Source: an uncultured Syntrophobacteraceae bacterium (lineage in GTDB: Bacteria > Desulfobacterota > Binatia > UBA9968). From it: a DNA stretch of 64,000 nucleotides. Of this stretch, positions 9,466-60,889 are shown piece after piece. Below the pieces are notes generated by a model. The model saw nothing but the letters and a program-made list of their open reading frames with translations, searched no databases and was not told the DNA's origin. Within the stretch, counting starts at the first letter, position 1; the number at the start of each line of letters is the position of its first letter. Location of the stretch: the NCBI GenBank assembly GCA_964410485.1, contig CAYPHJ010000002.1, forward strand, positions 1,311-65,310, read 5' to 3'. The translations under genes were made by a program, and so were the position numbers.

Positions 9466-9510
9466 GTTCAAGACGTTCCAATCGTTCAAGCTGTTCAAGA
9501 CGGTTGGAAC
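9466..9510. repeat. Tandem 9-nt array of the GTTCAAG family (GTTCAAGAC GTTCCAATC GTTCAAGCT GTTCAAGAC GGTTGGAAC)
   Basis: Read directly from the sequence. It is intergenic, immediately after the amidohydrolase stop codon. Confidence 0.85.
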
Positions 9511-9606
9511 CGCTTGTGACGCACAACCGGTTACAAACAGGCCCTTCTGAGATCTGACATGTGTAATTTGAAATGTTGAGCGCAGCGAAGCAGAGGTGGT
9601 GTTCTA

Positions 9607-10632
9607 ATGGTGATAGACTTTCAGGCGCACGTATTTCCCGAAACATATATTGACGAGATGAAACGCCTGGACGGCGCAGTGGTTCTGGAACCGCCCGATC
9701 CGCACAGCGGCATGCAGTATTTTTACGACAAGAAGCTCGGGTGCCGCATCAATACGGCGACCTTTCAGGGACGCGACCTGGAGCGTCGCATCGAACATAT
9801 GGACCGGCTCGGCATCGATGTGCACGTGCTGACGATTCCTGCGCCGGGGGCGGATCGATTCGACGGTCAAGATGCCGTTCGGATTGCGCAAACGGCCAAT
9901 AACGCCATCGCCAGCATCTGCCGTAAGCATCCGCAACGTTTCGTCGGGTTTTTCACGCTGCCAACCGCCTCCGTAGAGGCCTCTTTGGAGGAGCTGGAAC
10001 GAGCAGTCAATGAATTGGGTTTGAAAGGATTTGGTTGTTTTTCGAATCTTAACGGCCAAGGGCTGGACCGCGAAGGGCTATTTCCGATCTATGAGCGATT
10101 GGCCAAGCACAAGTTGCCGGTCTATATCCATCCCACCGCGCCGCTCGCCAGCGAAGCGACACGGATCGACATCATGCCGACTTTGATCTTCGGCTGGGCA
10201 TTTGACAGTACGGTAGCCATGACGCGATTGGTTTACGGTAGAGTCCTGGAGCGATTTCCCGAAATCAACTTCGTTGTCGCCGATGTCGGTGGCGTGCTCG
10301 CCTTCTTTGCCCAACGCGCGGCCAATATCTATACCGGGCGTACCGAAGAAATCCGCCAGCGCTACGGTCTCAAGGAGAATCCGCTAGATTCGTTCAAACG
10401 GTTTTTCGTCGATACCGCCGACCATCCTTCGTCAACCTTGCGCTGTGTAAAGGAGTTCTTCGGCGTAGAGCGGCTTGTGCTGGGCACAAACTATCCCTAC
10501 GGACCAGAGGAGGGCTGTGTGCTGGTGAAAAACAGTTTGAAAGCAATTGAGGAGCTGGGCTTGAATCAGGAAGAAAGAAACAAGATCCTGGGCGGCAACG
10601 CAGCCGAGATTCTTGGGTTGGGAGGGTCATGA
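9607..10632 (+). CDS. Amidohydrolase-2 family protein (paralogue of 8432..9460)
   Basis: 341 aa. It carries 'VIDFQAHVFP' and 'LGTNYPYG' motifs. Confidence 0.8.
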   Translation: MVIDFQAHVFPETYIDEMKRLDGAVVLEPPDPHSGMQYFYDKKLGCRINTATFQGRDLERRIEHMDRLGIDVHVLTIPAPGADRFDGQDAVRIAQTANNAIASICRKHPQRFVGFFTLPTASVEASLEELERAVNELGLKGFGCFSNLNGQGLDREGLFPIYERLAKHKLPVYIHPTAPLASEATRIDIMPTLIFGWAFDSTVAMTRLVYGRVLERFPEINFVVADVGGVLAFFAQRAANIYTGRTEEIRQRYGLKENPLDSFKRFFVDTADHPSSTLRCVKEFFGVERLVLGTNYPYGPEEGCVLVKNSLKAIEELGLNQEERNKILGGNAAEILGLGGS

Positions 10633-12230
10633 ATTTCGTCAAATCAGCAAGACCGGTAGTGATGGGCGACAGAGGAATGGTCTCGGCGGGCCACTATCTT
10701 GGCGCTGTTGCAGGCGTGAAAGCATTGCAGGATGGCGGCAATGCGGTGGACGCGGCCCTGGCAGCGGCATTTGTCATGGCGGTCGTTAAACCGGAATCGT
10801 GCGGGCCCGGCGGCGATCTCTTTGCGCTGGTCTACATCAACAAAACCGGCAAGGTCGAAGCGATCAATGCCAGTGGTCCTGCACCAGGTAAGGCAACGAT
10901 CGAGTACTTCCGTGACAGGGGCTTGAGCCGCATACCCACGTCGGGGCCTCTCAGCGTTGCGGTTCCCGGCGCCGTTGATGGCTGGCTCGAACTGCACAAA
11001 AAGTACGGGACGCTGGATCTCAAGCGCCTCACAGCCGAGGCGATCCATTGCGCGCGTCATGGATTTCCGCTCCACCTCGAACTGGCGGAAGCGATCGAAG
11101 AATTCAGTCCCGAGTTTCCCTCGATCGAGCGCGTCTTTCGCCGACCTTTGGGCGCGGTGAGGCCCGGCAAGTTGGTGGCGCAACCAGGCTTGGCGGACGT
11201 CTTCGAGAACATGGCCGACAAGGGACGGCAGGGGTTCTATAGCGGCAAAACAGCCGAAACGATTTGCCAGGCTCTGGCAAGCGAAGGTGGAATCCTCGCG
11301 ATCGACGATTTGGAGGGAAATGTCGCGCGCTGGCTGGAGCCGCTCAACTCACTTTACCGAGGGTATGTGGTCTACGAGCAGCCGCCTGTATCTCAGGGTT
11401 TTATGGTTTTGGAGATGCTCAACATCGTAGAAGGCTGGCCATTAAAGAACCTCGACATGTCGCGTGCCGATGTTATCCACTGTCAAATCGGCGCCAAGAA
11501 GCTCGCCTTCGAAGACCGGATACGCTACCTCGAAGATCCTGATTTCGGCGATCCGAAGATTGCCATGCTGACCTCCAAGGAATATGCGGCAAAGAGACGC
11601 GCGCTGATCGATGATCAGGGGTGGCAACCACAGCCGACTCAGGCCGCTCTGGGTGGAGATACCACCTATCTCTGCGCGACCGATCGAGAGGGTAACGCGG
11701 TATCGCTGATCCAGAGCATCTTTGCCCCGTTCGGATCGCGCGTCATTGCCGGAGATACCGGAGTGATTATGAACAACCGGCTCTGCAGCTTTGGCCTGGA
11801 TCCCGGTAATGCCAACTCGCTCAAACCGGGGAAGCGGCCTGCCCACACGTTAAATACTTACATGGTCTTCAAAGATGGCCGTTTTTTTGCGGTCGGCGGC
11901 AGCCCTGGAGCCGATGATCAACCACAGACCAACCTCCAGGTACTTCACAATCTCCTCGACTTGGACATGGATCCTCAAGCAGCAGTTGAGGCGCCGCGTT
12001 GGAGCCATCTGCCAGGGACGCCGCCACGCGATCAGGAGCCTGAGCAATTGCGCGTGGAGGCGGGTTTTGACGCTCGGGTGGTGGAGGAGTTGCGTGAGAA
12101 GGGGCACAAAGTCTCCCTTGTCGATCGATGGTCCTTCGGCAGCGCCAAGCTCATTGTGCTCGAACCCGAGAGCGGCACCTGGATGGGGGGCGCCGATTCC
12201 CGGCGCGAGGGCTATGCGCTCGGCTGGTAA
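10629..12230 (+). CDS. ggt: Gamma-glutamyltransferase
   Basis: 533 aa. It has the autoprocessing nucleophile context 'GGDTTYLCATDREGNAVSLIQS' and 'GSPGADDQPQ'. The start overlaps the upstream stop codon. Confidence 0.9.
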   Translation: MNFVKSARPVVMGDRGMVSAGHYLGAVAGVKALQDGGNAVDAALAAAFVMAVVKPESCGPGGDLFALVYINKTGKVEAINASGPAPGKATIEYFRDRGLSRIPTSGPLSVAVPGAVDGWLELHKKYGTLDLKRLTAEAIHCARHGFPLHLELAEAIEEFSPEFPSIERVFRRPLGAVRPGKLVAQPGLADVFENMADKGRQGFYSGKTAETICQALASEGGILAIDDLEGNVARWLEPLNSLYRGYVVYEQPPVSQGFMVLEMLNIVEGWPLKNLDMSRADVIHCQIGAKKLAFEDRIRYLEDPDFGDPKIAMLTSKEYAAKRRALIDDQGWQPQPTQAALGGDTTYLCATDREGNAVSLIQSIFAPFGSRVIAGDTGVIMNNRLCSFGLDPGNANSLKPGKRPAHTLNTYMVFKDGRFFAVGGSPGADDQPQTNLQVLHNLLDLDMDPQAAVEAPRWSHLPGTPPRDQEPEQLRVEAGFDARVVEELREKGHKVSLVDRWSFGSAKLIVLEPESGTWMGGADSRREGYALGW

Positions 12231-12351
12231 GCGCTGTCGCGCTCGACGACCGAAGACCGACGCCGCCGCTCGGATCATGGTACGGAAAATTAGGACGATT
12301 CTCTTCTAGGATGTTGTCGGAGCATTTTGTTGGCACCGCCGGTGCCGTTTT

Positions 12352-12439
12352 GTCATTCTCGCGCAGGCGGGAATCCAGATTTTCCGCGTCTCTCCTGGAT
12401 CGGGGCTCTCGCGTGCGTCCGCCCGCTCGGCTGGATGAC
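12352..12439. repeat. MITE-like palindromic element, GTCATTC...GGAATCCAG type
   Basis: The left arm is GTCATTCTCGCGCAGGCGGGAATCCAG. The right arm's reverse complement is GTCATCCAGCCGAGCGGGCGGACGC...GATCCAGG. Confidence 0.7.
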
Positions 12440-12489
12440 CCTGAACGTATAGCAACGAACCACTAGATAGGACGCACGCCGTATCGCCA

Positions 12490-13548: not shown

Positions 13549-13624
13549 GGAGTAATGGAAGTATTGGAGTATTGCTTTAAAGCCCAGCACCCATTACTCC
13601 ATCACTCCAATACTCCATTACTCC
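13549..13624. repeat. Unit-array hairpin, GGAGTA/TACTCC family
   Basis: The arms are GGAGTAAT GGAAGTATT GGAGTATT and, after a loop, CATTACTCC ATCACTCC AATACTCC ATTACTCC. Confidence 0.85.
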
Positions 13625-13648
13625 CTAAATACTTGGAGGCGTTAGACC

Positions 13649-14012: not shown

Positions 14013-14046
14013 GGAGTGTTGGAGTCATGGAGTCCTGGAGTATTGG
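14013..14046. repeat. Half-array of the GGAGT family (GGAGTGTT GGAGTCAT GGAGTCCT GGAGTATT GG)
   Basis: Four 8-nt units in one orientation only, directly after the phhB stop codon. Confidence 0.8.
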
Positions 14047-14179
14047 TCTAAACGCCATCGCTCCGAGGTCGTGTCTTCGCGCGCAGCGAAGCACCTGCTT
14101 TGGTCTTGGGTATTTCCTCGCCCTGTGGGGGGGTGAGGGCAGAAAGGGTGACAGAAGAGAATTTGTCAAGGAGGGTTAC

Positions 14180-16814: not shown

Positions 16815-16886
16815 ACAGAGGGGAGTCAGGATGACAGGTCGGGAGAAGGTCGGAATCTTTGTTAAAGGGGGGTTCACCCAGTACAT

Positions 16887-22347: not shown

Positions 22348-23025
22348 TCAGTTATCAATCACCCAATCGAACATCAGTATGCCGGCAGTGAGAAACATCA
22401 CATCAAATCCAATCAGCAGACGCAACCAGTGGGCGCCCTCGGACAGCTCCCCGCTTTGAATGAACGCCTCCATGCAGCGGATTGTCGCCAAAATGACCGG
22501 AATCATGAGCGGAAAGAGAATCAACGGCAGCAGCAGCTCACGCGCCCTGGCGCGCAGAGTCATCGCGGCCAGGAGCGTGCCGAGCACGCAAAATCCCACC
22601 GTTCCCAACACCGTGATAATAAAGAGAAACGGCAGCAGATTCCAGCCGGGCAAATTAAAAAGAACCCAGAACAGCGGTATCACCACTATTTCCACCAGGA
22701 CCATCAGGACAAGGGTAAAGCAGACTTTGGCAAGAAAGAAAGCGCCCCTATCCAGGGGTGACATGAGTAGGGCATCCAGGCAGTGGTTCTGGCGCTCGGA
22801 TTGAAACAACTGCGCCAGCCCCAACGTGCCGGTGAATAGAAAAGCGAGCCAGAGCAGGGCGGGGGCCATATCGAGCGCCTTCTCGGGCGCCAGATCGAAA
22901 GAAAAGTGGAATACGAAAAGCAGGAGCGTGCCGAAAAAAAACATCGTCAGCAGAGTTTCCCGCCGGCGCAGCTCCAGGCGCACATCCTTGACGAGGAGCA
23001 AGCGTGTCTGCTTGAGAAAACTCAT
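22348..23025 (-). CDS. ccmB: Heme exporter permease CcmB
   Basis: 225-aa six-TM protein positioned between ccmA and ccmC. Confidence 0.9.
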   Translation of the reverse strand: MSFLKQTRLLLVKDVRLELRRRETLLTMFFFGTLLLFVFHFSFDLAPEKALDMAPALLWLAFLFTGTLGLAQLFQSERQNHCLDALLMSPLDRGAFFLAKVCFTLVLMVLVEIVVIPLFWVLFNLPGWNLLPFLFIITVLGTVGFCVLGTLLAAMTLRARARELLLPLILFPLMIPVILATIRCMEAFIQSGELSEGAHWLRLLIGFDVMFLTAGILMFDWVIDN

Positions 23026-23729
23026 CTTTCCCCGCGCGGCAGGAACTCGCTGAAGGCGCGTGCGAAATTATCCCAGGGTTGCTGCCGGGGCTCATCGAAC
23101 TTGAGCCTCCCCTGGTCCAAGATAAGCGCGCGGCTGCAGAGATCGAGCACGCGCGAAACGTGGTGTGATGCGATGACGACGATGCGGCCCTTGGCGCATT
23201 GCTGCTTGAGAAACGTCTCCAGCAGGTCTATCCCGCGCCCGTCTAACACCCCGTAAGGCTCATCGAGTAGTAAAAGCTCGGGATCGAGCAGCTGCCATTT
23301 GGCTATAGCCAGGCGGCATTTCATGCCGCTCGACAGCGTTTCTCCGAGCTCGTTTGAGCGGCTGATCAGGTTCACTGCCTGCAGGGTATGGTTAAGCTCG
23401 GCGGGAGAAATTCTCTTTTGGTAAATGCCGGCGAAGAATTCCAGGTTTTCCCGTACCGTCAGGTTGTCGTACAGGTGTTCTCCTGGCACAAGGAAGCCGA
23501 TCTTGGCGCGCCATGCCGTGGCTTGCCGTGCCAGAGGTTCTCCGTCGAACTGGATCGCACCATGCGTTGGCTGGATCAGGCCGCCCAGGAGTTTCAACAG
23601 GGTGGTCTTGCCGGCCCCGTTCGGGCCGAGAAGAGCAATCAGGTCGCCTGGCGAGAAATCGCAAGTGATGTCTTTAAGCGCCCATAGCAGTCCATACGCT
23701 CTGGCAAGCTGACGAATCGTTATGTGCAA
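23022..23729 (-). CDS. ccmA: Heme exporter ATP-binding protein CcmA
   Basis: 235 aa with Walker A 'GPNGAGKTT', signature 'LSSGMKCR' and Walker B 'LLLLDEP'. It has a TTG start. Confidence 0.93.
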   Translation of the reverse strand: MHITIRQLARAYGLLWALKDITCDFSPGDLIALLGPNGAGKTTLLKLLGGLIQPTHGAIQFDGEPLARQATAWRAKIGFLVPGEHLYDNLTVRENLEFFAGIYQKRISPAELNHTLQAVNLISRSNELGETLSSGMKCRLAIAKWQLLDPELLLLDEPYGVLDGRGIDLLETFLKQQCAKGRIVVIASHHVSRVLDLCSRALILDQGRLKFDEPRQQPWDNFARAFSEFLPRGER

Positions 23730-23848
23730 CGTGGAAGTCCCAATGCGCGAGTTTGTTGTGGCCGGCCCAGATTCCGAAAGACTATAGTGGTCAGGGAAGG
23801 GGGATTCAAGTGGCCGGAGGGCTAGGGTATCCTCGTTGCCCTGTTCCG

Positions 23849-23941
23849 GTCATCCTGAGCGGCAGCGAAGGATCTGGTTTTCCCGTTGCTTGAAGCCCGG
23901 CCCAAAAGCAGATTCTTCGTCACGGTGTTCCTCAGGATCAC
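23849..23941. mobile_element. MITE-like element with inverted termini GTCATCCTGAGC..GAAGGATCTG / CAGATTCTTCG..CTCAGGATCAC
   Basis: Both arms were read directly and are separated by a spacer of about 32 nt. It lies in the 406-bp gap upstream of ccmA. Confidence 0.75.
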
Positions 23942-24135
23942 ACAGCAGGAATACACTCTGCGAGACCGTCACGATAACTCCAAATCGGACGCAACAGATG
24001 CGGTCAAGAGTGCTGGGGTGGTATACCCAAACACCATCTCCTGCCGTGACGCTGACCGCAAAATGCAAGTTGACATTTTCGGCTTGCCTCCCCTATGTAG
24101 TAGGGTCATAACATTACCGGTCCAGGGGAGGAACT

Positions 24136-24825
24136 ATGAATCCTGTGGTTGCCGTAAGCGGATTCTGGGATGCCTTTGTGGCTCGAATCGCCGTGTTCTT
24201 ACCGAACCTTTTGTTTGCTATTGCCATCATTCTGGTAGGTTGGGCTGTCTGCAATATCGTCAAGCGTATCACGGTCCGCCTGCTCAGATTGTTCCAGTTC
24301 GATGTGGTCGCGGATCGTACCGGGATCAAGCAGGCGCTCGACCGCGGCGGCATCCGCCAAACCCCGTCTGAAATCGTCGGGCTGCTGGTTTTTTGGTTTC
24401 TGTTTTTGATTGTGATTGTGACCACATTGGAAACGCTCAACTTGAGCGGCGCTACCGATACACTGCACACGATTTATCTTTATATTCCCAAGATCGCGGC
24501 GGCGCTCGTCGTGCTGATCCTGGGACTTTACTTTGCCAATTTCCTTGAAACGGTAACCCGGACCTCCTGCGCTAACGCGGGACTGGCGCAAGCGGCCTCT
24601 ATCGGCCGGGTCGTGTACATTGCCACAGTCGTCTTTGTCGTTGCCGGAGTGCTCGAAATCCTGGAGATTGCCTCGGAAATCGTGATCTGGGCATTTATCC
24701 TGGTCTTTGGCGCGCTCTGCCTGGCGCTTGCCCTCGCCTTCGGTTTGGGAGGCCGTGATGTGGCAGCGTCTTATCTGCAGAAGTGGTTGGAACCAAAGAA
24801 GAATAATGAAATCACACCACCTTGA
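24136..24825 (+). CDS. Membrane protein with repeated TM-helix modules (mechanosensitive-channel-associated 'conserved TM helix' type)
   Basis: 229 aa with about 4-5 hydrophobic helices in a repeated pattern. Family assignment is by resemblance only. Confidence 0.6.
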   Translation: MNPVVAVSGFWDAFVARIAVFLPNLLFAIAIILVGWAVCNIVKRITVRLLRLFQFDVVADRTGIKQALDRGGIRQTPSEIVGLLVFWFLFLIVIVTTLETLNLSGATDTLHTIYLYIPKIAAALVVLILGLYFANFLETVTRTSCANAGLAQAASIGRVVYIATVVFVVAGVLEILEIASEIVIWAFILVFGALCLALALAFGLGGRDVAASYLQKWLEPKKNNEITPP

Positions 24826-24877
24826 CTCTCCCTTGGTTATGGGCTAAGTTCAACGCGTTTAAAAACTTTTCAAGCTA

Positions 24878-24925
24878 AATAGCCTAAGGGGGGCGCCAAG
24901 GCTGAATTCCCTTAGGCTATTTTTG
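24878..24925 (+). terminator. Rho-independent terminator
   Basis: AATAGCCTAAGG, a 20-nt loop, CCTTAGGCTATT, then a T-run. It lies 50 nt after the upstream stop codon and just before the icd RBS. Confidence 0.6.
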
Positions 24926-24940
24926 CGCATGAGGAAGACT

Positions 24941-26347
<1,407 letters not shown>

Positions 26348-26355
26348 AGGATGCA

Positions 26356-26439
26356 GGTTAAGGTTTAAGGCTCAGGAAAACATCGGGCTATGACCTTCCG
26401 GGTGCCGAAACTCGTAACCCGAAACTCGTAACTCGAAAC
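26356..26439. repeat. Two short-period tandem arrays in the icd-mdh spacer (GGTTAAG GTTTAAG GCTCAGG; CGAAACT CGTAACC CGAAACT CGTAACT CGAAAC)
   Basis: Read directly from the sequence. Both have a 7-nt period. Confidence 0.8.
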
Positions 26440-26456
26440 AGGACATAGAGGAAGTT

Positions 26457-27398
26457 ATGGCACGAAAGAAAATCGCCTTGATTGGCGCCGGAAATATTGG
26501 CGGCAGCATGGCCCATCTCTGTTTGCTCAAGCGCTTGGGCGATGTGGTTCTTTTTGACGTGATAGAGGGTCTGCCGCAAGGCAAAGCGCTCGATCTTTCT
26601 CATGCGGGACCGGTGGAAGGCTTCGACGGCAATGTGATCGGAACGAACAAATACGAAGATATTGCCGGCGCCGATGTTTGCATCGTCACGGCCGGGGTTG
26701 CGCGCAAGCCTGGCATGAGCCGCGACGATCTGGTCGGAACCAATGCCAAGATCATTAGCTCGGTTGCGGAGAACATAAAGAAACACGCGCCGAACAGTTT
26801 CGTCATCGTGGTTACAAACCCCTTGGATGCCATGGTGACGTTGACAAAGCGCGTTACCGGTTTTCCCAAAAATCGCGTTGTTGGCCAGTCGGGCATTCTC
26901 GACTCCTCGCGCTATCGATCTTTCATCGCACGTGATCTCAACGTCTCCGTCAACAGTGTTGCGGCTATGGTTCTTGGCGGGCACGGCGATGACATGGTTC
27001 CGCTTCGAAGTACCTGCTTTATCGGCGGTGTGCCTGTTGAAAAACTGATTTCCGATAAGCGCCTCGCCGAGATCGAAAGCCGTGTCCGCAACGCCGGGGG
27101 GGAAGTCGTTGCCTTGTTGAAAACGGGTTCGGCTTATTTTTCCCCCGCCTCCGCGGCGATTCGTATGACCGAGGCATATTTCCTCGACACCAAAGAGATA
27201 CTGCCATGCGCAGCGCTGCTGGAAGGCGAGTATGGAGTCACCGGCTACTATTTCTGCGTTCCGGTGATGATCGGCGCCGGGGGCGTGGAGAAAATCATTG
27301 AGATTGCTCTCAACGCCGCGGACAAGAAAGCGTTTGATGAGTCACTGAGCCATGTGAAAGACATTGTTCAGGCCATGGATCGCATTTTGGCCGTTTGA
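26457..27398 (+). CDS. mdh: Malate dehydrogenase (LDH-like type)
   Basis: 313 aa with '[12 protein letters not shown]', '[13 protein letters not shown]' and '[11 protein letters not shown]'. Confidence 0.95.
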
Positions 27399-27403
27399 CC
27401 GAA

Positions 27404-27455
27404 TCGTGGCTCGTGTTCGTGGTTCGTGTTCGTTCGATCGCGAGCACGAGCACGA
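27404..27455. repeat. Unit-array hairpin, TCGTG(G/T) / CACGAGC family
   Basis: TCGTGGC TCGTGT TCGTGGT TCGTGT TCGTTCG, a loop, then CGAGCACGAGCACGA. It fills almost the entire 64-nt mdh-sucC spacer. Confidence 0.85.
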
Positions 27456-27462
27456 TGACTCT

Positions 27463-28620: not shown

Positions 28621-28700
28621 CCGACTAGCATCGTCAGGAGTTTTGTAGGAGGGCATTTCGACTCGCGATTGTAAGACTAATCAACGAGCGCATACGATTA

Positions 28701-28778
28701 CACCACGAAGGACGCGAAGGACACGAAGGTTCGGAAAATTACTTTCTTGAATCTCCTAACTTCGTGACCTTCGTGGTT
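28701..28778. repeat. Unit-array hairpin, CACGAAGG family (copy A1)
   Basis: CACCACGAAGGA CGCGAAGGA CACGAAGGT, an A/T-rich loop, then AACTTCGTGACCTTCGTGG. It lies in the 182-nt sucC-sucD spacer. Confidence 0.9.
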
Positions 28779-28802
28779 AACTCCACTGTTTCTGCTTTTG
28801 AT

Positions 28803-29678: not shown

Positions 29679-30106
29679 GCTTGGAGAGGACATTATCGAT
29701 GATCAAACCGGATGCCGTGGAGCGCCGGTTAATTGGTGAGATTCTGAAGCGTTTCGAGGCCGCGGGCCTGAAAATCGCTGCGGCCAAATTGGTCCGTCTA
29801 ACGCCGGAAAGTGCCCAGGCCTTCTACGCAGTCCACAAGGAACGACCGTTCTTCGCGAGTCTTTGCGCATACATGTCGTCGGGACCGATTTTCGTTTCGG
29901 TGCTGGAAGGGGAGAACGCCATTGCGAAAAATCGCGAGATCATGGGCGCCACGGATCCTGCGAAGGCGGCAGTCGGAACCATACGCAAGGACTGCGGCCA
30001 AGACGTGGAGAAAAATGCCGTCCACGGCTCGGACAGCAATGAAACCGCGGCAACCGAGATTGCCTTCTTTTTCAAACCCACCGAAGTTTTTTCGTCAGCG
30101 GGATAG
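29675..30106 (+). CDS. ndk: Nucleoside-diphosphate kinase
   Basis: 143 aa with '[12 protein letters not shown]' and the 'NAVHGSDS' active-site His. Confidence 0.96.
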
Positions 30107-30126
30107 TTAGATTGTCTTGCCCGCTG

Positions 30127-39185: not shown

Positions 39186-39199
39186 AACCGTGGTCTTTT

Positions 39200-39244
39200 C
39201 TCGTGCTCGGCTCGGACAACACGAGTCACGAACACGGATCACGA
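39200..39244. repeat. Unit-array hairpin, CTCGTG / CACGA family (second copy)
   Basis: CTCGTGCTCGGCTCGG...CACGAGTCACGAACACGGATCACGA, directly after the lepB stop codon. Confidence 0.75.
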
Positions 39245-39266
39245 AATTTTCGCGTCGAGATCACCG

Positions 39267-39557: not shown

Positions 39558-39565
39558 ACGTTGTT

Positions 39566-40016: not shown

Positions 40017-40084
40017 CACCACGAAGGACGTGAAGAATACGAAGTTCGGATAAGGGGTTCGAAAAAACCTTTCTTCCTTCGTGC
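40017..40084. repeat. Unit-array hairpin, CACGAAGG family (copy A2)
   Basis: CACCACGAAGGA CGTGAAGAA TACGAAGTT, a loop, then CCTTCGTGC. Confidence 0.85.
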
Positions 40085-40099
40085 TCCCCTAAACCCCAA

Positions 40100-40200: not shown

Positions 40201-40357
40201 TCCTGTGGTGGCGGGACAGATCGTGGGCCACTTTCATCGTATGTGGGCGAGCGTAAGATCATGAAACACTCGTGATGAATGATTTCATTGAGCACATGTG
40301 AGAAGGTGCTAACTGCCGCAAGGCCCAGAGGACCTAGAAGAACCAAGAAATCAGCAC

Positions 40358-43300: not shown

Positions 43301-44806
43301 ATGCGGGGTTATGTGGCGGCCGAACGTTGGGTGGTGACAAAGGCGGCCATTGGCGAGGCTGAGAGCGATCCGCCGGTGGTCTTGCCAACCGGCTGGTCTC
43401 GCGACGTCATTCCCCAAGAGGCGGCAGTGCGAAAGATCGTTCAGGGCTGGATGGAGGTGCTGGGACCTGTGACAGTACCCGCGCTGGCGCAACGATTGGG
43501 ATTGGCGGGAGCGAAAATCGAAGCGGCTTTGCTGGCGCTCGAAGGCGATGGAGTGGTGTTGCGCGGCGAGTTTACCGGCAGCCCCACTGGCGGATTGGAG
43601 TGGTGCGACCGGGCGCTCCTTGCGCGCATCCATCGCTTGACATTGGGACGGATGCGCAGGGAGATCGAAGCGGTTTCGCCCGCGGACTTCATGCAATTTC
43701 TCCTGGTATGGCAGCACGTCTCTCCGGGTACCCAGTTGCGCGGACGCGAGGGAGTTTTGGAAGTCATCCGCCAGCTTCAAGGGTTGGAGCTGCCGGCGCC
43801 GGCCTGGGAGCAATTCGTTCTGCCGGCACGAGTCAAAGAGTACGATCCTTCGGATCTGGAAAATCTTTGCCTCGCCGGTTCGGTGACTTGGGGTCGTCTG
43901 CGTCCCAATATAGAGCAGCCCGAAACAGATGCATCGAGCCAGACAGTCAAGCGCCGCCGCCGGCGCTTCCTGGCGCCGACTCGAACCGCGCCAATTTCAT
44001 TTTTGCTGCGCGAGGAGCTGGACTTTTTTCTCGAAGGTTTGCTTCTCGCATGGGATGAGGCGAGAGACCTTTCTACCGCCGCGCGCGAAGTCGGGCGCTA
44101 TCTTGAACGCCGCGGCGCCTCATTTTTGAACGACATTGCGCGGGCGACGGGTTTGCTTAAAGTCAAAACCGAAGAAGCTCTTTGGCAGCTTGTCGCCCAT
44201 GGCTACGCCACTGGGGACGGCATTGCAGGTTTGCGCGTCCTCCTGACGCCCGCTGCAAAGAGATTGACCGGCCGCCGCCGGCTTCGCGTTATCGCCGGAG
44301 GTCGCGCAGCGGAGCGCTTGATGCCGGTCGGGCGTTGGTCGCTGTGGCGGGAGATAAACCATGACACGGAGCTCAGTCCCGAGCAAATCGCCGAGCGCCG
44401 TGCGTGGCAGCTCCTCCGCCGCTACGGGATCGTCATTCGCGAGTTGCTGGCGCGTGAGTCGTCGGCGCCCCCATGGAGAAGTCTACTTAAGATTTACCGC
44501 CGGCTGGAAGCCAGAGGAGAGATTCGCGGCGGTCGGTTCGTCAACGGATTTGTCGGCGAGCAGTTTGCTCTTCCCGAAGCCGTGGAAAGATTGCGCGAGT
44601 TACGGCGCGACAAACATGACAACGAGCCGGTGCTCCTGAGCAGCGCCGACCCGCTTAATCTAGTCGGCATTTTGACACCCGGATCGCGCTTGTCCCCCTA
44701 TTCAACCCAGGTTATTGCTTACCGCAAGGGGATTTCGGTTGATACCGGTCCGCTCGCCGCGGTGATGAGCAGGCTGCAGAACGGCGAAGCCGAGACCGCA
44801 GAATAA
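40358..44806 (+). CDS. lhr: Lhr-family ATP-dependent DNA/RNA helicase, full length (helicase core plus C-terminal domain)
   Basis: 1482 aa with motif I 'APTGSGKT', motif II 'DEIH', 'VATASLELGIDIG' and 'QRVGRSGH'. It has the long Lhr-type C-terminal extension. Confidence 0.93.
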   Translation: MSSFDETVNFHPVVWRWFSRRFNAPTPPQRQGWEAIASGRSTLIAAPTGSGKTLAAFLWSIDRLVQKALSGELRDATQVVYVSPLKALGNDIAINLQTPLAEIFQLAWSEGYILPEIRVAVRSGDTPSQERQSMVHKPPHILITTPESLYILLTSERSRRFLKTTETVILDEIHAVAQDKRGAHLALSVERLEELAGKPLQRVGLSATQKPLDEVARLLVGNPTDGDGKSPCSVIDVGHQRHLDLQIELPDQELGAIVTHDLWAGVYERIVAQVKAHRTTLVFVNTRRLVERVAHQLSERLGAGKVGAHHGSLSRQTRLDVESKLKSGVLPVVVATASLELGIDIGHVDAVCHIGSPRSLSVLLQRVGRSGHWLGAVPKGIFYPLTRDDLLQSVAAIRAVRQGQLDRLCIPEKPLDILAQQMVAIVASVAPEGRPSTEDGRPTPNNGTAGGQSTSDDFRSNEATREAGKPGLSEETLWSLVRRAYPYRNLTREEFEQTLEMLSEGIATRKGRRSAYIHRDRINGVLRPRRGARLAAITSGGAIPDTADYDVIQFPDETFVGKVNEDFAIESLAGDIFLLGNRSWRIRRVGSGKVWVEDAEGLPPSVPFWLGEAPARTRELSAAVSTLRQEVYDRLEDPGEAKRWLLAGAIPLAAAEQVLGYIEETAAVLGSIPVQHRIIAERFFDEAGGMQLVIHSPWGGRINRAWGMALRKRFCLNFDRELQAAATDDGIVLSLVEQHSFPVSDVFQMLQPAVLERALTQALLASPFFTNRWRWNATRALAVMRQSGGKKVPVALQRMRAEDLLAAVFPEQVMCQDNRSGPVEIPDHPLVKETLHDCLHEAMDLDGLTEILELIRKGEIRTSAVDTPAPSPMAHEILNANPYAFLDDAPLEERRARAVSLRRVEPALGRDLGRLDPQAIEEVRRQAWPDIRNADELHDFLLSVCLLPLSEQDEWAQFAPELLQTRRATIATWPATPAQVPMRGYVAAERWVVTKAAIGEAESDPPVVLPTGWSRDVIPQEAAVRKIVQGWMEVLGPVTVPALAQRLGLAGAKIEAALLALEGDGVVLRGEFTGSPTGGLEWCDRALLARIHRLTLGRMRREIEAVSPADFMQFLLVWQHVSPGTQLRGREGVLEVIRQLQGLELPAPAWEQFVLPARVKEYDPSDLENLCLAGSVTWGRLRPNIEQPETDASSQTVKRRRRRFLAPTRTAPISFLLREELDFFLEGLLLAWDEARDLSTAAREVGRYLERRGASFLNDIARATGLLKVKTEEALWQLVAHGYATGDGIAGLRVLLTPAAKRLTGRRRLRVIAGGRAAERLMPVGRWSLWREINHDTELSPEQIAERRAWQLLRRYGIVIRELLARESSAPPWRSLLKIYRRLEARGEIRGGRFVNGFVGEQFALPEAVERLRELRRDKHDNEPVLLSSADPLNLVGILTPGSRLSPYSTQVIAYRKGISVDTGPLAAVMSRLQNGEAETAE

Positions 44807-44909
44807 CAATGGACACGTAGGCGGCAACGGCGCGAACAAGTCCGAAACGGGGACCTTACCACTGAGATCCTAGCGCGGCAGAGCCGCAACCCAAGAGGAA
44901 AGAACACGT

Positions 44910-44996
44910 CACCACGAAGGCCACGAAGAGCGCGAAGAAAGAAATTTGTTTTTATAACTCCTTTCCGAACTTCGTGACCTTCGTGTGCTTCGTGGT
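44910..44996. repeat. Unit-array hairpin, CACGAAGG family (copy A3)
   Basis: CACCACGAAGGC CACGAAGAG CGCGAAGAA, an A/T-rich loop, then AACTTCGTGACCTTCGTG TGCTTCGTGGT. It shares the 18-mer AACTTCGTGACCTTCGTG with A1. Confidence 0.9.
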
Positions 44997-45031
44997 AGGA
45001 GTGTATCTACATCAATCAGGAGGAGTTTCCT

Positions 45032-45823
45032 ATGGAAGTTTGTTTTCTCGGCACCGGCGCGCCCTATCCCGATCCACTGCGCGGGAGTTCGGCAATTCTC
45101 GTTGATGTTGCGTCTTCCCGGCTCTTGCTCGATTGTGGCAGGGCTTGTGTTCAACAGATGGCGCGCCTTCGTATCGAGCCGGCCACTGTGACGCATTGCT
45201 TTCTCACTCATGGCCACTACGATCACGTGGCCGATTATGCATTGCTGGTATTGACCTCCTGGAGGTTCGGCAGATCTCACACGTTGCAAGTGTACGGACC
45301 ACCCGGTACTCGCGCGATGTCGGATGCGTTGTTCCACGAAGCGTACAAGATCGACATTACGGCGCGCAAAATGCTGAACAAATCGGAAGCGGCATCGGAC
45401 ATCAACATCAAAGTCACTGAAATGCGGGACGGCTCGGTTGCGGAAGGAGAGGGATGGCGAGTACGCGCCGTAGAGGTGGCGCACTGGCCGATCCCGCTAT
45501 CTCTGGGTTTTCTTATTGAGGGGGAAGGCAAACGGGTGTTTTTTACAGGCGATACATCTCCCTGTGACGCCGTCAGAGAAGGCGCGGGCGGTGTTGATAT
45601 GTTGATTCATGAAGCGATGTATTTCTCGCCCGAATCCGGACACTACCGAAGCCACAGTCATCCTGAGCGCGTCGGTGAAGTGGCGCGCCAAGCCGGAGTG
45701 GGCCAGCTTGTTTTGACACACCTGCAACCCAACACCGAAAAAGGAAGACTGTTGACCGACGCTAGCAAACACTACGCGCGGCAGATCGTCATGGCCGCCG
45801 ACCAGATGCGCCTGGTCGTGTAG
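45032..45823 (+). CDS. MBL-fold metallo-hydrolase (RNase Z/BN-like)
   Basis: 263 aa with 'MEVCFLGTGAP', the HxHxDH motif 'THGHYDHV' and a C-terminal 'LVLTHL'. Confidence 0.85.
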   Translation: MEVCFLGTGAPYPDPLRGSSAILVDVASSRLLLDCGRACVQQMARLRIEPATVTHCFLTHGHYDHVADYALLVLTSWRFGRSHTLQVYGPPGTRAMSDALFHEAYKIDITARKMLNKSEAASDINIKVTEMRDGSVAEGEGWRVRAVEVAHWPIPLSLGFLIEGEGKRVFFTGDTSPCDAVREGAGGVDMLIHEAMYFSPESGHYRSHSHPERVGEVARQAGVGQLVLTHLQPNTEKGRLLTDASKHYARQIVMAADQMRLVV

Positions 45824-45838
45824 CGTTTAACAGATGCA

Positions 45839-45861
45839 GGGGCAATCGCCTGTGATCGCCC
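45839..45861. repeat. GGGGCAATCGCC..GATCGCCC hairpin between convergent genes
   Basis: Read directly from the sequence. It resembles the hairpin at 33397. Confidence 0.55.
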
Positions 45862-45894
45862 TCTCTTTACGCCCGCGGCGGTTATCTCATAGGC

Positions 45895-46179
45895 CTATCG
45901 GGTGCCGCCGTTCACCGCGCCGCCCGAATTCGCCATGACCTCTTTGAGGATCCTGATTTCGACCACCTCTTCCTGCAGTCGCGTCAGTCCTTCTTTGGCG
46001 CGATGAATTTCATTCAGCAGGTTGTCCAACTCTCCCATCGAGATGGATTCGAGGGTTTCACGAATCTTGCGATTCAGTCCGAAAAGATTTTGCACGCCGC
46101 CATGATCCGATATCTTGGTATCGATATCGAAGTAAAGCCGCGTCACGTTCTCCATTTGGTTCTTGACTTCGTCCACCAT
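45895..46179 (-). CDS. Hypothetical protein (94 aa, helical, no recognised family)
   Basis: The ORF has plausible codon usage and diverges from the XDH-family gene across an A/T-rich spacer. Confidence 0.5.
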   Translation of the reverse strand: MVDEVKNQMENVTRLYFDIDTKISDHGGVQNLFGLNRKIRETLESISMGELDNLLNEIHRAKEGLTRLQEEVVEIRILKEVMANSGGAVNGGTR

Positions 46180-46371: not shown

Positions 46372-48648
46372 ATGACAGAAAATCGAGTCTTGGGTATTCC
46401 GAGCCCGCGAGTCGAGGGCGAAGAGAAGGTGGGCGGAAAAGCCGTTTATGCCGTCGACGTCGTATTGCCGGGAATGCTTTGGGTAAAGGTCATTCGCAGC
46501 CCCATAGCTCACGGCCGGATCAAGCGCATTGACTTGTCAAAGGCGCATGCCGTTGCGAGAGTCAACACGATCCTAACCGGGCAGGATCTTGCGGGCATCA
46601 GGATTGGCAAGAAGGTCGTCGATATGCCTATCCTGGCCGATGGCGTTGTTCGCTACATTGGTGAAAAAGTGGCTGCTGTGGCGGCAGAAACGGAAGAGGT
46701 GGCGGAGCGCGCAGCGGAGTTGGTCGAGGTTGAGTACGAAGAGTTGCCGACAGTAATCGATCCCGTCGATGCCATGCTTCCTTCGGCGCCGCTGTTACAT
46801 CCCACGCTTGCCGAATATAAAGGGCTGCTGCACCCAATCGAGACGCCGAGCAATGTCTTTGTCCATTTGACCTGGAAGAAAGGTGATGTCGAGGAGGGGT
46901 TCAGGCAGTCCGATGTGATTGTCGAAAACAGTTTCGAGGTGCCAGCAGTCCATCAGGGCTACATCGAGCCCCACTCGTGTGTTGTAAGGGTAAACGGTGA
47001 TGACTCCGCGGACGTCTGGGCGTCGACCAAAAGCCCGTTCGCGATGCGTGAGCAAGTCGGCAGTGCCTTACAAATTTCACCAGGCGCGCTTGTCATCCAC
47101 CCCTGTTATGTCGGCGGCGATTTTGGTGGCAAGGGGGATGCCAACGAGGTGGCGCTTTGTTACATGCTCGCCAAACGGAGCGGCCGGCCGGTGAAATTTC
47201 TCATCGATTATACTGAAGAATTAATGGCCGGCAATCCGCGGCACGGCGCCAAGATCAGAATTAAAACCGGGGTGAAGAGGAACGGACTGCTCATCGCACA
47301 GCAAATCGAATACGTCTTCGACAGCGGCGCTTACGGCGCGTACCGGCCTCAGGGCTACCTGGTCGGCGCGCACGATGCATCCGGTCCCTACCGCATTCCG
47401 AATACCTATATCGAGGAGAAATACGTCTACACCAACAAATTTCCGTGCGGTTACATGCGCGCTCCCGGCCATCCGCAGGGTGCGTTTGCGAGCGAGAGCC
47501 AGGCGGATATCGTGGCGAAGACGCTGGGAATGGATCCGGCCGAGTACAGACGCATGAACTTTATGCAGGACGGCGACCGCTTCCCCGTGGGGGAAAGCAT
47601 CGCTCACGTGAAGGCCACCGAGACATTGAAGATGGCGCTGGAGGAGTCCGGTTATTACGACAAGAAGCCAAAGAATGTCGGCCGTGGCTGTGCCGTCGGT
47701 AATTGGGTGTCAAAAGGCGGCGAGTCTTACGCTTTCGTGAAGATCGATGACAAGGGCGACATTACGTTGTCGACAGCGGTAACGGACACGGGTCCGGGCG
47801 CGTACACGATCATGCGCCAGATCGTAAGCGAAGAGCTCAAGGTGCCGCTGGATGCGATCAAAATGGAGATTGTCGATACGACCAGGGTGGTCAAAGACAC
47901 CGGCGTGCGCGGCAGCAGCAGCACGCGGGTGCATGGTGGATCGGCATTGGAGGCGGCAAAGAACGCGCGCCAGGAAATCTTGCGCGCCGCTGCCAGCGCC
48001 ATGAATGCGTCGCCGGACGAGCTCATTTTGGTTGACGGTGGTGTCACACATGGCCGCGCCGAGCGGCGCATGAACTTTGCCGATATCGTGCGAGTCAACG
48101 GCAGCCCCATTGTCGTCGAAGGACACTATGCCAACATGAAAGAAGGACCGGAGACTTCCACCGTTGCACAGGTGGCGGAAGTCGAGGTGGACGCGGAAAC
48201 GGGCGAAGTCATGATCAAGCGCTTGACGACCGCCCACAACACGGGGACGGTTCTCAATCCCCTGACGCATCAGGGGCAAATCGATGGTGCGGTGATTATG
48301 GGTGTGGGTTATGGTGCGATGGAGGAGCTGATCGTGGATGACAGCGGGCGGGTGATGACGGCCAATTTGGGCGATTACAAGATTCCCAACATCAAGGATA
48401 TTCCTCTGCTCAGGACGGCGATCTTACAGTCGAATGTCGGCAGCGGCCCCTACAACAGTATGAGCATTGGCGAGACCGCGATCATTCCCACCGCGGCCGC
48501 GATCGCGAACGCGGTGGAGGATGCCGTCGGCGTAAGGATCAAGTCATTGCCCATTACGGCCGAGAAGGTCCTGAACGCGCTGCGCGAGCGCGAAAAGCCT
48601 CCGTCTCGGGTCTCGGGTTCCGGGTCTCACGTTGAAGAGGAGGGATAA
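46372..48648 (+). CDS. Xanthine dehydrogenase/aldehyde oxidase/CO-dehydrogenase family molybdopterin-binding large subunit
   Basis: 758 aa with an N-terminal a/b-hammerhead ('VEGEEKVGGKAVYAVDV...IRSPIAHGRI') and Mo-cofactor domains ('GGDFGGKG', 'GETAIIPTAAAIANAV'). Confidence 0.9.
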   Translation: MTENRVLGIPSPRVEGEEKVGGKAVYAVDVVLPGMLWVKVIRSPIAHGRIKRIDLSKAHAVARVNTILTGQDLAGIRIGKKVVDMPILADGVVRYIGEKVAAVAAETEEVAERAAELVEVEYEELPTVIDPVDAMLPSAPLLHPTLAEYKGLLHPIETPSNVFVHLTWKKGDVEEGFRQSDVIVENSFEVPAVHQGYIEPHSCVVRVNGDDSADVWASTKSPFAMREQVGSALQISPGALVIHPCYVGGDFGGKGDANEVALCYMLAKRSGRPVKFLIDYTEELMAGNPRHGAKIRIKTGVKRNGLLIAQQIEYVFDSGAYGAYRPQGYLVGAHDASGPYRIPNTYIEEKYVYTNKFPCGYMRAPGHPQGAFASESQADIVAKTLGMDPAEYRRMNFMQDGDRFPVGESIAHVKATETLKMALEESGYYDKKPKNVGRGCAVGNWVSKGGESYAFVKIDDKGDITLSTAVTDTGPGAYTIMRQIVSEELKVPLDAIKMEIVDTTRVVKDTGVRGSSSTRVHGGSALEAAKNARQEILRAAASAMNASPDELILVDGGVTHGRAERRMNFADIVRVNGSPIVVEGHYANMKEGPETSTVAQVAEVEVDAETGEVMIKRLTTAHNTGTVLNPLTHQGQIDGAVIMGVGYGAMEELIVDDSGRVMTANLGDYKIPNIKDIPLLRTAILQSNVGSGPYNSMSIGETAIIPTAAAIANAVEDAVGVRIKSLPITAEKVLNALREREKPPSRVSGSGSHVEEEG

Positions 48649-48810
48649 CTGGAGACTTCACACCTGAAATTCGGAACGATTGAGTGTGCCATCGCTCCGC
48701 AGGACTCATCGCTCGATTACAGCGTGTCGCGTTTTTCCTTCTGTGCGTGAAAACCGGGCTAAGAACCAGAGAAACTATCCGTTAATGAATCCTCAGAGTC
48801 GCTGACGTCA

Positions 48811-54620: not shown

Positions 54621-54696
54621 GTTCAATAGTTCAAGTGTTCACGATGGCGAAGAGGGGACATTGACCTTTTGAACCTTTGAATCTTGAACACTATTG
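54621..54696. repeat. Unit-array hairpin, GTTCAAG family (copy C2)
   Basis: GTTCAATAGTTCAAGTGTTCA, a loop, then TTGAACCTTTGAATCTTGAACACTATTG. It abuts the stop codon of the ParB-like gene. Confidence 0.8.
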
Positions 54697-60079: not shown

Positions 60080-60100
60080 AGCCTCAAAAACTTGACCTCT

Positions 60101-60222
60101 GTCCTCCCCCGCGCGCCCTTCGATACGCCGCGCAGACGGCGGCTACTCAGGGCGGCCGGTTTCCCGAGTAGGCCCTGAGTAGCTTGCGTAGCGAAGGGCC
60201 GTAGCGAGGGACGGGGGAAGGA
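60101..60222. repeat. Long imperfect palindromic element (about 120 nt)
   Basis: The pairings are CTACTCAGGGC (60143..60153) with GCCCTGAGTAG (60172..60182), CCCTTCG with CGAAGGG, and TCCTCCCCCG with CGGGGGAAGGA. Confidence 0.75.
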
Positions 60223-60307
60223 TGAAAGAAGGGAATCTGAGATAAGAGGCGCCTTCCGAGTCCGACTTGACTCGTACCTGACGCAGTTTTATAAGCGGTT
60301 TAGGTCG

Positions 60308-60796
60308 ATGGCAATCCCCGGACGGTACAATTCAGGTTACAACATTGGTGTTGGAGGCGCGGTGCTTCATCAGGGCAAGCTTCTGATGGTGCGGCGTGCT
60401 TCGCGACACGGTCGAGGCAACTGGCAGTTGCCAGGCGGTTTTATTGAACCCGACGAAACCATAGAACAAGCGGTGGTACGCGAGGTCTTGGAAGAAGCAG
60501 GCGTGACAGCGGAAGTGGAAGGTGTCTTGGGTCTCCGCAATCGCTACGATCCGGATTCGGGAAACGGCATCTACATTATTTTACTCTTGCACGCCGTGCG
60601 TGGTGAGCCCAAGCCGGATGGCAATGAAGTCGATCATGCCGGGTATTTTTCGCTCGATCAAATCCAAGAGCTCAGCCCATTGCCACCGGTCAATTGGGAA
60701 ATCGCGCAGCGAGTGCTCTCGCCCGACCGCCGGCTTCTGCATCCCAAGCCGCTGACAAATCTCAACGGCGCGCGATTCATGCTGTTTGTCGGCTAA
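60308..60796 (+). CDS. NUDIX hydrolase
   Basis: 162 aa with the Nudix box 'GGFIEPDETIEQAVVREVLEEAGV'. Confidence 0.9.
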   Translation: MAIPGRYNSGYNIGVGGAVLHQGKLLMVRRASRHGRGNWQLPGGFIEPDETIEQAVVREVLEEAGVTAEVEGVLGLRNRYDPDSGNGIYIILLLHAVRGEPKPDGNEVDHAGYFSLDQIQELSPLPPVNWEIAQRVLSPDRRLLHPKPLTNLNGARFMLFVG

Positions 60797-60814
60797 TCGT
60801 CGCCGCTAGGCGGC

Positions 60815-60889
60815 GGTTCAAAAGTTCAAATGTTCAAAGTTCAAGCTGGCGAGGGAACCTTGAACTTTTGAACCCTGGAACATTTGAAC
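60815..60889. repeat. Unit-array hairpin, GTTCAAG family (copy C3)
   Basis: GGTTCAAAA GTTCAAAT GTTCAAA GTTCAAG, a loop, then CTTGAAC TTTTGAAC CCTGGAAC ATTTGAAC. Confidence 0.9.

Follow-up and report, generated by a model that had tools for sequence, protein, structure and literature searches.

Candidate REP-like palindromic elements with periodic arms between the genes of a soil lineage that is probably Binatia

Short bacterial tandem repeats of the heptamer type have been on record since 1990 and are still unexplained. Direct arrays occur in Calothrix, Nostoc, Microcystis, and Beggiatoaceae, with several heptamer alphabets (sets of unit sequences) per genome in Microcystis and Nostoc; for such arrays, a role near start codons and a binding protein were proposed, the protein not having been found. 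In Xanthomonas, (GGGANTN)n arrays number 183-186 per genome, mostly have 4 units, are 89-93% intergenic, and lie equally on the two strands; 70-75 cases per genome consist of two close, convergent, opposite-strand arrays that are able to fold into stem-loops or cruciforms (Rehm et al. 2015, PLoS One, PMC4692102). These arrays have no link to insertion sequences and are commoner in convergent than in divergent contexts; their unit number varies between species, the single or paired type being usually preserved, and they coincide with transcript starts or stops more often than controls do (PMC4692102). Repetitive extragenic palindromes (REPs) are 20-40 nt long and carry a GTAG or CGTC tag at one of their ends (PMC3733652). 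Here, we analyze hairpins whose arms are tandem units of 6-9 nt in a 64-kb stretch of the genome of an uncultured bacterium assigned to Binatia (the window: GenBank assembly GCA_964410485.1, contig CAYPHJ010000002.1, positions 1,311 to 65,310). The sequence-only reading that drew attention to these hairpins was aware of no formal description of such a class; the paired convergent arrays of Xanthomonas (Rehm et al. 2015, PMC4692102) are in fact one.

The gene spacers of this soil lineage, probably Binatia, appear to harbor several families of palindromic DNA elements that are small, dispersed, and non-autonomous. On balance, we consider it probable that they resemble REPs and bacterial interspersed mosaic elements (BIMEs), with cores that form repeated sites for the binding of a protein acting in trans from another locus and with slippage that changes the number of units. 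Judging from the alignments described below, homology between copies runs from end to end, and many related genomes contain them in abundance; between relatives they come and go, are swapped for others, or occur inverted, some lie within other repeats, and their arms change in length by whole units.

The architecture was assessed in a strict k-mer census that called a 5-mer repeated at least 2x in tandem and then its reverse complement at least 2x within 70 nt, with at least 5 occurrences in total. This census replaced a period-based tandem detector with ungapped arm pairing, which found 3 loci only and was too strict as unit length varies. The window yielded 5 loci, compared with a mean of 0.04 in 100 dinucleotide shuffles; its intergenic DNA yielded 4, compared with 0 in 1000 shuffles of each spacer, and its 58 kb of coding DNA yielded none. 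The periodic-arm architecture is therefore real and spacer-specific. Comparison with shuffled intergenic sequence had been set beforehand as a possible refutation, and the window loci far exceed that expectation, so that the central proposition of the sequence-only reading, one architecture with different unit sequences, is borne out by a recurrence far above chance.

Each alphabet forms a dispersed family in its own right. The three window copies of the CACGAAGG (CACGAAG) family align end to end, one of them reversed, and the alignment takes in the 5' flank ATAC..ATT.CACCACGAAGG as well as an asymmetric inner part, ACGAAG(G)TTCGGA ... TTTCTT. A strict CACGAAGG pattern built from these copies matched at least 120 JGI soil-metagenome contigs, and the 80 matches listed (L082-L161; 436 kb, GC 0.50-0.66), chosen for CACGAAGG only, served as the metagenome sample. 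Among these matches, the hairpins follow a near-identical consensus of ~90 nt, TTTTCACCACGAAGGACACGAAGAGCACGAAGTTCGGA-(AT-rich loop)-TCCGAAmCCTTCGTGTCCTTCGTGmTCTTCGTGGTGAA, with TCAC and GTGA as its ends; a copy with this consensus has a folding energy of -48.8 kcal/mol (z -9.2). The 3' arm holds 2-4 units among the matches listed. CACGAAG arrays are paired in 92 cases vs 42 solo, and from their sequences the solo arrays look like decayed or split hairpins. Although the contigs were chosen for one alphabet, others account for 23 of their 91 periodic hairpins: TGGAGTnnT (GGAGTnnT), GTTCAAnn, and GTTTCGr, which are of window type, and in addition GAGGATsG, TGGAAC, GGATTTT, CACGAAA, CACAGAG, and TCAGC. 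The window has at least 5 alphabets and the lineage at least 10. The CACAGAG and CACGAAA hairpins have the terminus (A/C)ACCAC in common with CACGAAG, and some alphabets therefore derive from others by a change of the core in every unit of both arms. The suggestion that a common mechanism, rather than the decay of one family, underlies the design is thus half right: the shared architecture stands, whereas each alphabet is a homologous dispersed family and some descend from others.

In the window, tandem 6-9-nt units are present at all 12 of the coordinates at which such hairpins had been proposed. When each locus was folded as RNA and compared with dinucleotide shuffles, five proved to be strong two-armed periodic hairpins (z -3.7 to -7.2: 13549, 27404, 28701, 44910, and 60815) and three folded moderately (39200, z -2.6; 9466 and 54621, both z -2.1), whereas 40017 (z -1.4), 14013 (z -1.2), 26406 (z -0.8), and 48604 (z -0.07) are indistinguishable from shuffles because their second arm is single-unit or decayed. 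The claim of at least 12 loci sharing one design thus holds for the units, whereas the complete design is strong at only 5 loci and moderate at 3, the other 4 being one-armed or decayed. That hairpins occupy most gene junctions was an overstatement: arrays are present in about 11-12 of the 27 spacers of at least 40 nt between 9466 and 60889. The loci are as follows.

9464..9522: GTTCAAG family; 5' array of 4 units, GTTCAAGAC GTTCCAATC GTTCAAGCT GTTCAAGAC, and a degenerate 3' arm, GGTTGGAACCGCTTGTGAC; spacer of two co-directional amidohydrolase genes; z -2.1.
13549..13626: GGAGTA(A/T)T family, two-armed; arms 13549-13574 (3 units) and 13590-13626 (4 units), period 8; -31.7 kcal/mol, z -7.2; family also found in L088, L128, L133, and L152.
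14013..14064: GGAGT family; 5' array of 4 units (14013-14046) and a single reverse-complement unit, CCATCGCTCC; z -1.2.
26356..26439: GTyyCGr family, icd/mdh spacer; decayed 5' arm GGTTAAGGTTTAAGG (26356-26370) and intact 3' array, CGAAACT/CGTAACC x5 at 26405-26439; z -0.8.
27402..27457: TCGTG(G/T)/CACGAGC hairpin occupying the 64-nt mdh/sucC spacer; arms 27404-27433 and 27439-27456, period 6-7; -33.4 kcal/mol, z -5.8.
28701..28778, + strand: CACGAAGG family copy, sucC/sucD spacer; arms 28702-28729 (3 units) and 28759-28778 (2 units); -35.5 kcal/mol, z -6.5.
39200..39245: degenerate TCGTG/CACGA hairpin, TCGTGCTCGGCTCGG ... CACGAGTCACGAACACGGATCACGA; z -2.6.
40017..40086, + strand: decayed CACGAAGG family copy; 5' arm of 3 units, 3' arm of 1 unit; in a 450-nt mosaic spacer, adjoining a GTCATTCTGAGG... 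repeat; z -1.4.
44910..44996, - strand: CACGAAGG family copy in reverse orientation; 3+3 units, period 9; -40 kcal/mol, z -6.7, with three 7-9-bp helices and 2x2 internal loops at the spacers between them.
48601..48676: GTyyCGr family; 5' array GTCTCGG GTCTCGG GTTCCGG GTCTCAC within the last codons of the open reading frame (ORF) 46372-48648, and a decayed 3' arm (GGAGAC..TTCGGAAC) beyond its stop codon; z -0.07.
54621..54690: GTTCAA family; 3+3 units; occupies the 64-nt spacer of two minus-strand genes; z -2.1.
60815..60889: GTTCAA family; 4+4 units of 7-9 nt, convergent genes on either side; -27.2 kcal/mol, z -3.7.

The genes around these loci are of housekeeping type (ValRS, EF-G, ccm genes, icd-mdh-sucC-sucD-ndk-rlmN, LepA, Lhr), in DNA of 54-60% GC with one tRNA gene. 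The assignment of the loci to sub-families had been sound overall, except that 48604 (GTCTCGG/GTTCCGG) and 26406 (CGAAACT/CGTAACC), listed apart, are, when relatives are compared, a single alphabet, GTyyCGr, on opposite strands, and that the decayed 5' arm of 26406, at 26356-26370, had been overlooked. Pairing of the stems in several registers is plausible: the minimum free energy (MFE) structure makes up 3-36% of the ensemble across the folded loci, and at 60815, where it makes up 3%, the centroid lies in another register. A motif GC(A)GCGAAGC stands directly 3' of three hairpins (9586-9600, 14078-14092, and 60889-60903; GAGCGCAGCGAAGCAGAGG, GCGCGCAGCGAAGCACC, and GTGAAGCGAAGCGAGCC) and may be another mosaic module. 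A 7-nt unit, GACCGAC/GACCGAA, is found in tandem in an intergenic spacer and within the Lhr helicase ORF (window 12243-12264 and 41655-41686), in neither case with a complementary arm.

The anatomy of the unit is the same in every alphabet: a conserved core of 6-7 nt and 1-3 variable spacer bases, with 3-4 units per arm, arms of 20-35 nt, and elements of 55-95 nt. In an alignment of 54 CACGAAG copies that was anchored on the outer cores only, so that the inner cores were not search anchors, information amounts to 1.6-2 bits per position in the inner cores, 0.4-1.6 in the spacers, and 0.2-1.4 in the loop. The two arms are not mirror images, with spacers GA and AG in the 5' arm vs AG/AT and GA in the reverse complement of the 3' arm; pairing in register therefore leaves 2x2 internal loops, and the spacer positions form Watson-Crick pairs in only 0-17% of the copies. 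The variable outer spacer of the CACGAAG copies does not covary with its would-be partner. Complementarity in a register shifted by one unit was considered as covariation and rejected, being frozen ancestry of the family master. That many arm mismatches would become G-U pairs in RNA, as had been supposed, did not hold up, given that on the sense strand 80 mismatches are of the G-U type vs 74 of the A-C type, with no G-U excess. Invariant cores combined with unpaired, non-covarying spacers thus fit recognition of the core sequence rather than selection on structure, and they also speak against arm-to-arm template correction.

Turnover of the elements can be followed at orthologous junctions of the icd-mdh-sucC-sucD operon. 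The window Mdh belongs to a 90%-identity cluster of 550 proteins, a single one of which bears the name 'Candidatus Binatia bacterium', whence the probable placement of the lineage in Binatia. The relatives drawn from this cluster (L202, L206-208, L211-212, L216-217) are 72-78% identical to the window in coding DNA; a further contig, L001, the sole close match in a SucC search of genome contigs, is syntenic with window 22462-38396 at about 70-77% nucleotide identity. Exact-protein matches of the window SucC and Mdh are short Logan contigs only, 100% identical to the window and uninformative on polymorphism. At icd/mdh, every Mdh-cluster relative has a GTTTCGr array that starts 6-8 nt past the stop codon and holds 3-6 units, with unit indels and point changes between relatives; L211 has both arms, and the window has the reverse complement, with a decayed 5' arm and the strong 3' arm CGAAACT/CGTAACC. 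From this comparison, one-armed arrays are therefore hairpins that decayed while evolving in place. In L001, the icd/mdh and sucC/sucD spacers are only about 20 nt long and hold no element.

At mdh/sucC, L001 (5990-6030), L202, L206 (6425-6465), and L211 have an ordinary hairpin in common, GAGACCCTrGGCTAA..TTAGyCTyAGGGTCT, which is kept among relatives at about 70-78% nucleotide identity and may be a functional stem-loop between two cistrons. In L202, about 180 nt are inserted within this hairpin; it is replaced by the TCGTG/CACGAG hairpin in the window and by another stem-loop in L216. The sucC/sucD junction carries four alphabets across the window and the Mdh-cluster relatives:

Window: CACGAAGG.
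L202: AAAATCA/TTTTnAA.
L206, L208, L211, and L212: TGAGGCG/CCTCACn, the first unit of which includes the stop codon.
L216: GATTTTs/sAAAATC.

The metagenome copies tell a similar story. A composite insertion containing a hairpin is present in L084 and absent from L186, the flanks being 91% identical; in the pairs L088/L178 and L128/L194, a hairpin is found at the same site with about 90% identity, the adjacent non-coding DNA being unalignable, and the arms of L128 and L194 are one whole unit apart. At one orthologous site, the CACGAAGG hairpins of L109 (1505-1577) and L176 (about 2615-2690) are mutually reverse-complement, loop included, pointing either to an inversion in place, between the arms, or to two separate insertions at that spot. 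The presence/absence polymorphism proposed as a check is thus evident, with copies gained or lost, swapped, and inverted at orthologous junctions. Positional and orientation bias, also proposed, is not: CACGAAGG copies in co-directional contexts lie in the gene orientation in 13 cases and opposite to it in 8, with no clear bias, and among 142 hairpins of all alphabets (67 co-directional, 14 convergent, and 9 divergent contexts), the co-directional ones are a median of 42 nt from the upstream stop and 39 nt from the downstream start.

In the scenario that we favor, the element would be a functional analogue of REP/BIME, an inverted repeat of 55-95 nt with arms of 3-4 units. A trans-acting protein would read the cores of both arms; it might be a transposase or a recombinase by which the elements are copied or maintained, and every alphabet would be served by a separate reader, cognate or paralogous. 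Units would come and go through replication slippage between identical cores. In a transcribed spacer, the element can fold as an RNA hairpin and may have an incidental effect on mRNA 3' ends or processing; in the sequence data, there is no sign of RNA pairing as a trait maintained by selection. The proposal of a REP/RAYT-like system or a reader of a periodic motif accordingly survives in its second part, since motif reading fits the core and spacer anatomy, whereas the defining features of REPs are missing.

Several observations weigh against this scenario. In the metagenome copies, the bare hairpins are not flanked by a target-site duplication, and the comparisons yielded no clean empty site with exact boundaries; the hairpin's own transposition is therefore presumptive. 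The roughly 90% identity of hairpins amid unalignable non-coding DNA could reflect host-level selection rather than recent insertion, and a stem-loop of some kind is present at mdh/sucC in L001, L202, L206, L211, L216, and the window, with unrelated sequences, which hints at a host function of the hairpin there. As the sequence-only reading had noted, the 64-kb window encodes no RAYT or transposase, a Pfam search of 50 of its about 57 ORFs yielding housekeeping families only. Nor does any partner gene recur beside the copies in 436 kb: the recurrent families among the 411 clustered ORFs are only transporter-binding proteins, amidohydrolases, and similar. A tblastn search for Y1 transposases (IS200 TnpA and E. 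coli RayT) was negative in 790 kb, although this was a weak test. Several alphabets would also need several readers, and no paralogous candidate family was identified.

Among the alternatives, host-selected cis-acting RNA elements at operon junctions, recruited from repeats to act as barriers to 3' exonucleases, RNase III sites, or partial terminators, are unlikely, though less so than the others. The location of the hairpins in transcribed spacers of housekeeping operons (icd-mdh-sucC-sucD) is in keeping with such a role, as are the mdh/sucC stem-loops that persist despite unrelated sequences, the preponderance of convergent over divergent contexts (14 vs 9), the transcript ends at the Xanthomonas repeats, and the altered reporter expression caused by Nostoc heptamer arrays. 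Yet the sense strand is not enriched in the G-U type of mismatch (80 vs 74), orientation bias is unclear (13 vs 8), the hairpins have no U-tracts, several arrays fold like shuffles, and L001, with its spacers of about 20 nt, is hairpin-free at two of three junctions. Invariant cores with unpaired, non-covarying spacers are the opposite of what selection on structure alone would produce.

We regard as quite improbable the possibility that the hairpins are platforms for a host DNA- or RNA-binding protein, such as a nucleoid-associated protein, a cold-shock/OB-fold type protein, or a regulator, so that inversion reflects binding to both strands and dispersal is secondary. The anatomy of core and variable spacer, common to all alphabets and to the Xanthomonas (GGGANTN)n arrays, would suit such a platform, solo arrays lie directly upstream of start codons (26406 and two CheY-like genes of L147), and the literature proposes cold-shock proteins that bind one per heptamer. 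At least 8 unrelated cores in one lineage are, however, hard to square with a single host protein, alphabets swap freely at junctions, and the 67 co-directional hairpins are equally far from stop and start. Finally, a purely mutational origin, in which short palindromes grow by slipped-strand unit duplication and template switching between arms wherever long spacers are tolerated and no trans factor is involved, is very unlikely: it would account for unit-number changes at orthologous sites, for lineage-specific units in Acidobacteriota, Methylomirabilota, Desulfonema, Verrucomicrobia, and an alphaproteobacterial metagenome-assembled genome (MAG), and for the concerted change of core in all units of both arms of derived sub-families, but the whole ~90-nt consensus, with its non-periodic termini, inner stem, and order of units, is the same in more than 100 contigs of differing GC and gene context and therefore needs copying rather than independent growth, template switching between arms would yield complementary spacers, which these are not, and about 15 Firmicutes loci (roughly 21 kb each) give one hit, apparently a coding repeat.

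The known classes of bacterial repeats and signals were considered in turn. Intrinsic (Rho-independent) terminators were rejected because no U-tract follows the hairpins; a terminator scan of 26000-45999 reports no full hairpin, its sole overlap, at 27400, being a sub-stem inside an arm, and the hairpin flanks are T-rich on the 5' side and A-rich on the 3' side. At the gathering score, Rfam finds one tRNA only in the window, and at an E-value threshold, only sub-threshold matches to eukaryotic miRNA precursors. The elements are high-copy, intergenic, and dispersed in the manner of REPs (at least 120 contigs, 41 of 45 CACGAAGG copies intergenic, 0.078 per kb), but canonical REPs were rejected on account of the length of 55-95 nt and of the tag, since only 6 of the 118 copies of the CACGAAG family have GTAG, CTAC, CGTC, or GACG at most 8 nt from an end. 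Canonical MITEs, the miniature transposable elements with inverted repeats, were rejected because the bare hairpins have no target duplication. Integron attC sites were dropped, the neighboring genes belonging to housekeeping operons rather than cassettes, and so were CRISPR arrays, the 77-nt arrays of L099 having no spacers. The alphabets of the window (CACGAAG, GTTCAA, GGAGTA, TCGTG, and GTyyCGr) have no run of at least 3 G per unit that could serve as a G-quadruplex tract. The hairpin consensus has no BLAST match among PLSDB plasmids, and a pattern scan of IMG/VR viral contigs found none.

The hairpins take part in larger mosaics. In about 19 contigs (including L143, L144, L127, L105, and L091), the CACGAAGG hairpin forms the center of a ~175-bp MITE that has GGTTCTTCCGGGTTTACTGTG / CACACAAAAGCCTGAAGAACC as its terminal inverted repeats and is flanked by a duplicated AT-rich target of 8 bp, such as ATTTCTAA in L127 and AAAAATTT in L120; BLAST against PLSDB plasmids gives neither a match nor an insertion sequence for this carrier. 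Hairpins also adjoin other recurrent modules, other elements are inserted in hairpin loops, and back-to-back arrangements occur. L099 carries 77-nt tandem satellite arrays on either side of a 466-aa ORF (966-1300 and 2975-3428; L126 is identical here), which consist of half-elements on the same strand (CACCACGAAGG..TTCGGAT and CACCACGGAGGCACGGAGAAGAGAGGAC) without complementary arms. A further repeat family, GTCATyCTGAG..GCGAAGrATC, is paired with GATCCCTC..CGGGATGAC, or in relatives with CCGTCATTCC..GGAATCCAGG; it is found in the window at 23830-23960, 16830-16860, and 40095-40215, in L088 at 5200-5400, and in L154, in large mosaic spacers common with periodic hairpins. In the window RlmN (ORF 30112-31389), an in-frame insertion of about 58 aa (30588-30747), absent from L206 (425 vs 356 aa), coincides with a ~170-nt palindromic repeat, GACCCTCACCCCTCCCTCTCCC ... 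GGGAGAGGGAGGGGTGAGGGTTC, that contains a GGATTCCCG...CGGGAATGACG module. An in-frame repeat within a housekeeping gene such as rlmN is reminiscent of the Rickettsia palindromic elements.

Beyond the lineage, the design is sparser. The strict census gives 0.078 loci per kb in the window, 0.05 in Mdh-cluster relatives, 0.012 in unrelated bacterial loci (1.27 Mb), and 0.0006 in shuffles, and the hits in unrelated loci cluster in few genomes, each with its own units: Acidobacteriota (L025, L030, L075), Methylomirabilota (L068), Desulfonema (L064), a Verrucomicrobia MAG, and an alphaproteobacterial MAG. A literature search found no description of multi-alphabet hairpin families or of Binatia repeats, and the multi-alphabet hairpin design is a new variation on a reported, still unexplained type of repeat. 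We think it a long shot that the Binatia hairpins, the Xanthomonas pairs, the cyanobacterial short tandemly repeated repetitive sequences (STRRs), the Beggiatoa arrays, and the Acidobacteriota and Methylomirabilota versions form one cross-phylum system of core-reading, trans-acting paralogues that copy or maintain the elements; if they did, this system would stand beside REP/RAYT as a class of its own within mobile or domesticated DNA. The lineage is favorable for pursuing the question, with many alphabets in one architecture, abundant soil-metagenome copies, and fast turnover at orthologous operon junctions. A gene that tracks an alphabet across genomes would identify the core reader and show how the elements spread and whether they affect operon expression, and a cognate protein family, if found, would sharply raise the significance of the feature. 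In practice, the elements fragment assemblies and spawn spurious ORFs (FTTKDTKSTKFG, FVSFVLFVV), so that masking is advisable in the annotation of soil MAGs.

Set beside the known systems, the hairpins combine features of several. Like the REP, BIME, and REPIN (REP doublet forming hairpins) elements, they are short palindromic intergenic copies, in the hundreds, in operons and at gene 3' ends, in either orientation and without target-site duplication; they also form mosaics with other motifs, and their consensus is kept between related species while their positions are not. The partner enzyme of those systems (RAYT, Y1) is encoded at one distant locus. Unlike in REPINs, the arms are internally periodic and are not themselves palindromes. 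With bacterial MITEs (Correia/NEMIS, ERIC, RUP), they share the character of small, non-autonomous, co-transcribed inverted repeats in spacers, the presence or absence of which differs between relatives, but the terminal inverted repeats and DDE-transposase target duplications of MITEs are absent from the bare hairpins and present in the ~175-bp carrier. With the cyanobacterial STRR/heptamer repeats and the TAACTGA repeats of Beggiatoaceae, they share intergenic tandem 7-mers, usually in 2-6 copies, yet those arrays are direct (inverted in 1 of 170 sets in a Beggiatoa genome and in a few pairs in Nostoc), whereas here the inverted pair is basic. As in the Xanthomonas arrays, units of ~7 nt with conserved and variable positions, about 4 to an array, form convergent pairs in intergenic DNA. 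The period is 6-9 nt here and 7 in Xanthomonas, and there is no stop-codon bias here (42/39 nt), compared with 28 and 160 nt in Xanthomonas. Xanthomonas has one G-rich alphabet, read via G-quadruplexes, whereas many alphabets are present here, most of them unable to form this structure, and, in contrast to Xanthomonas, it is the entire hairpin, termini, inner stem, and loop included, that forms a dispersed family conserved as a whole.

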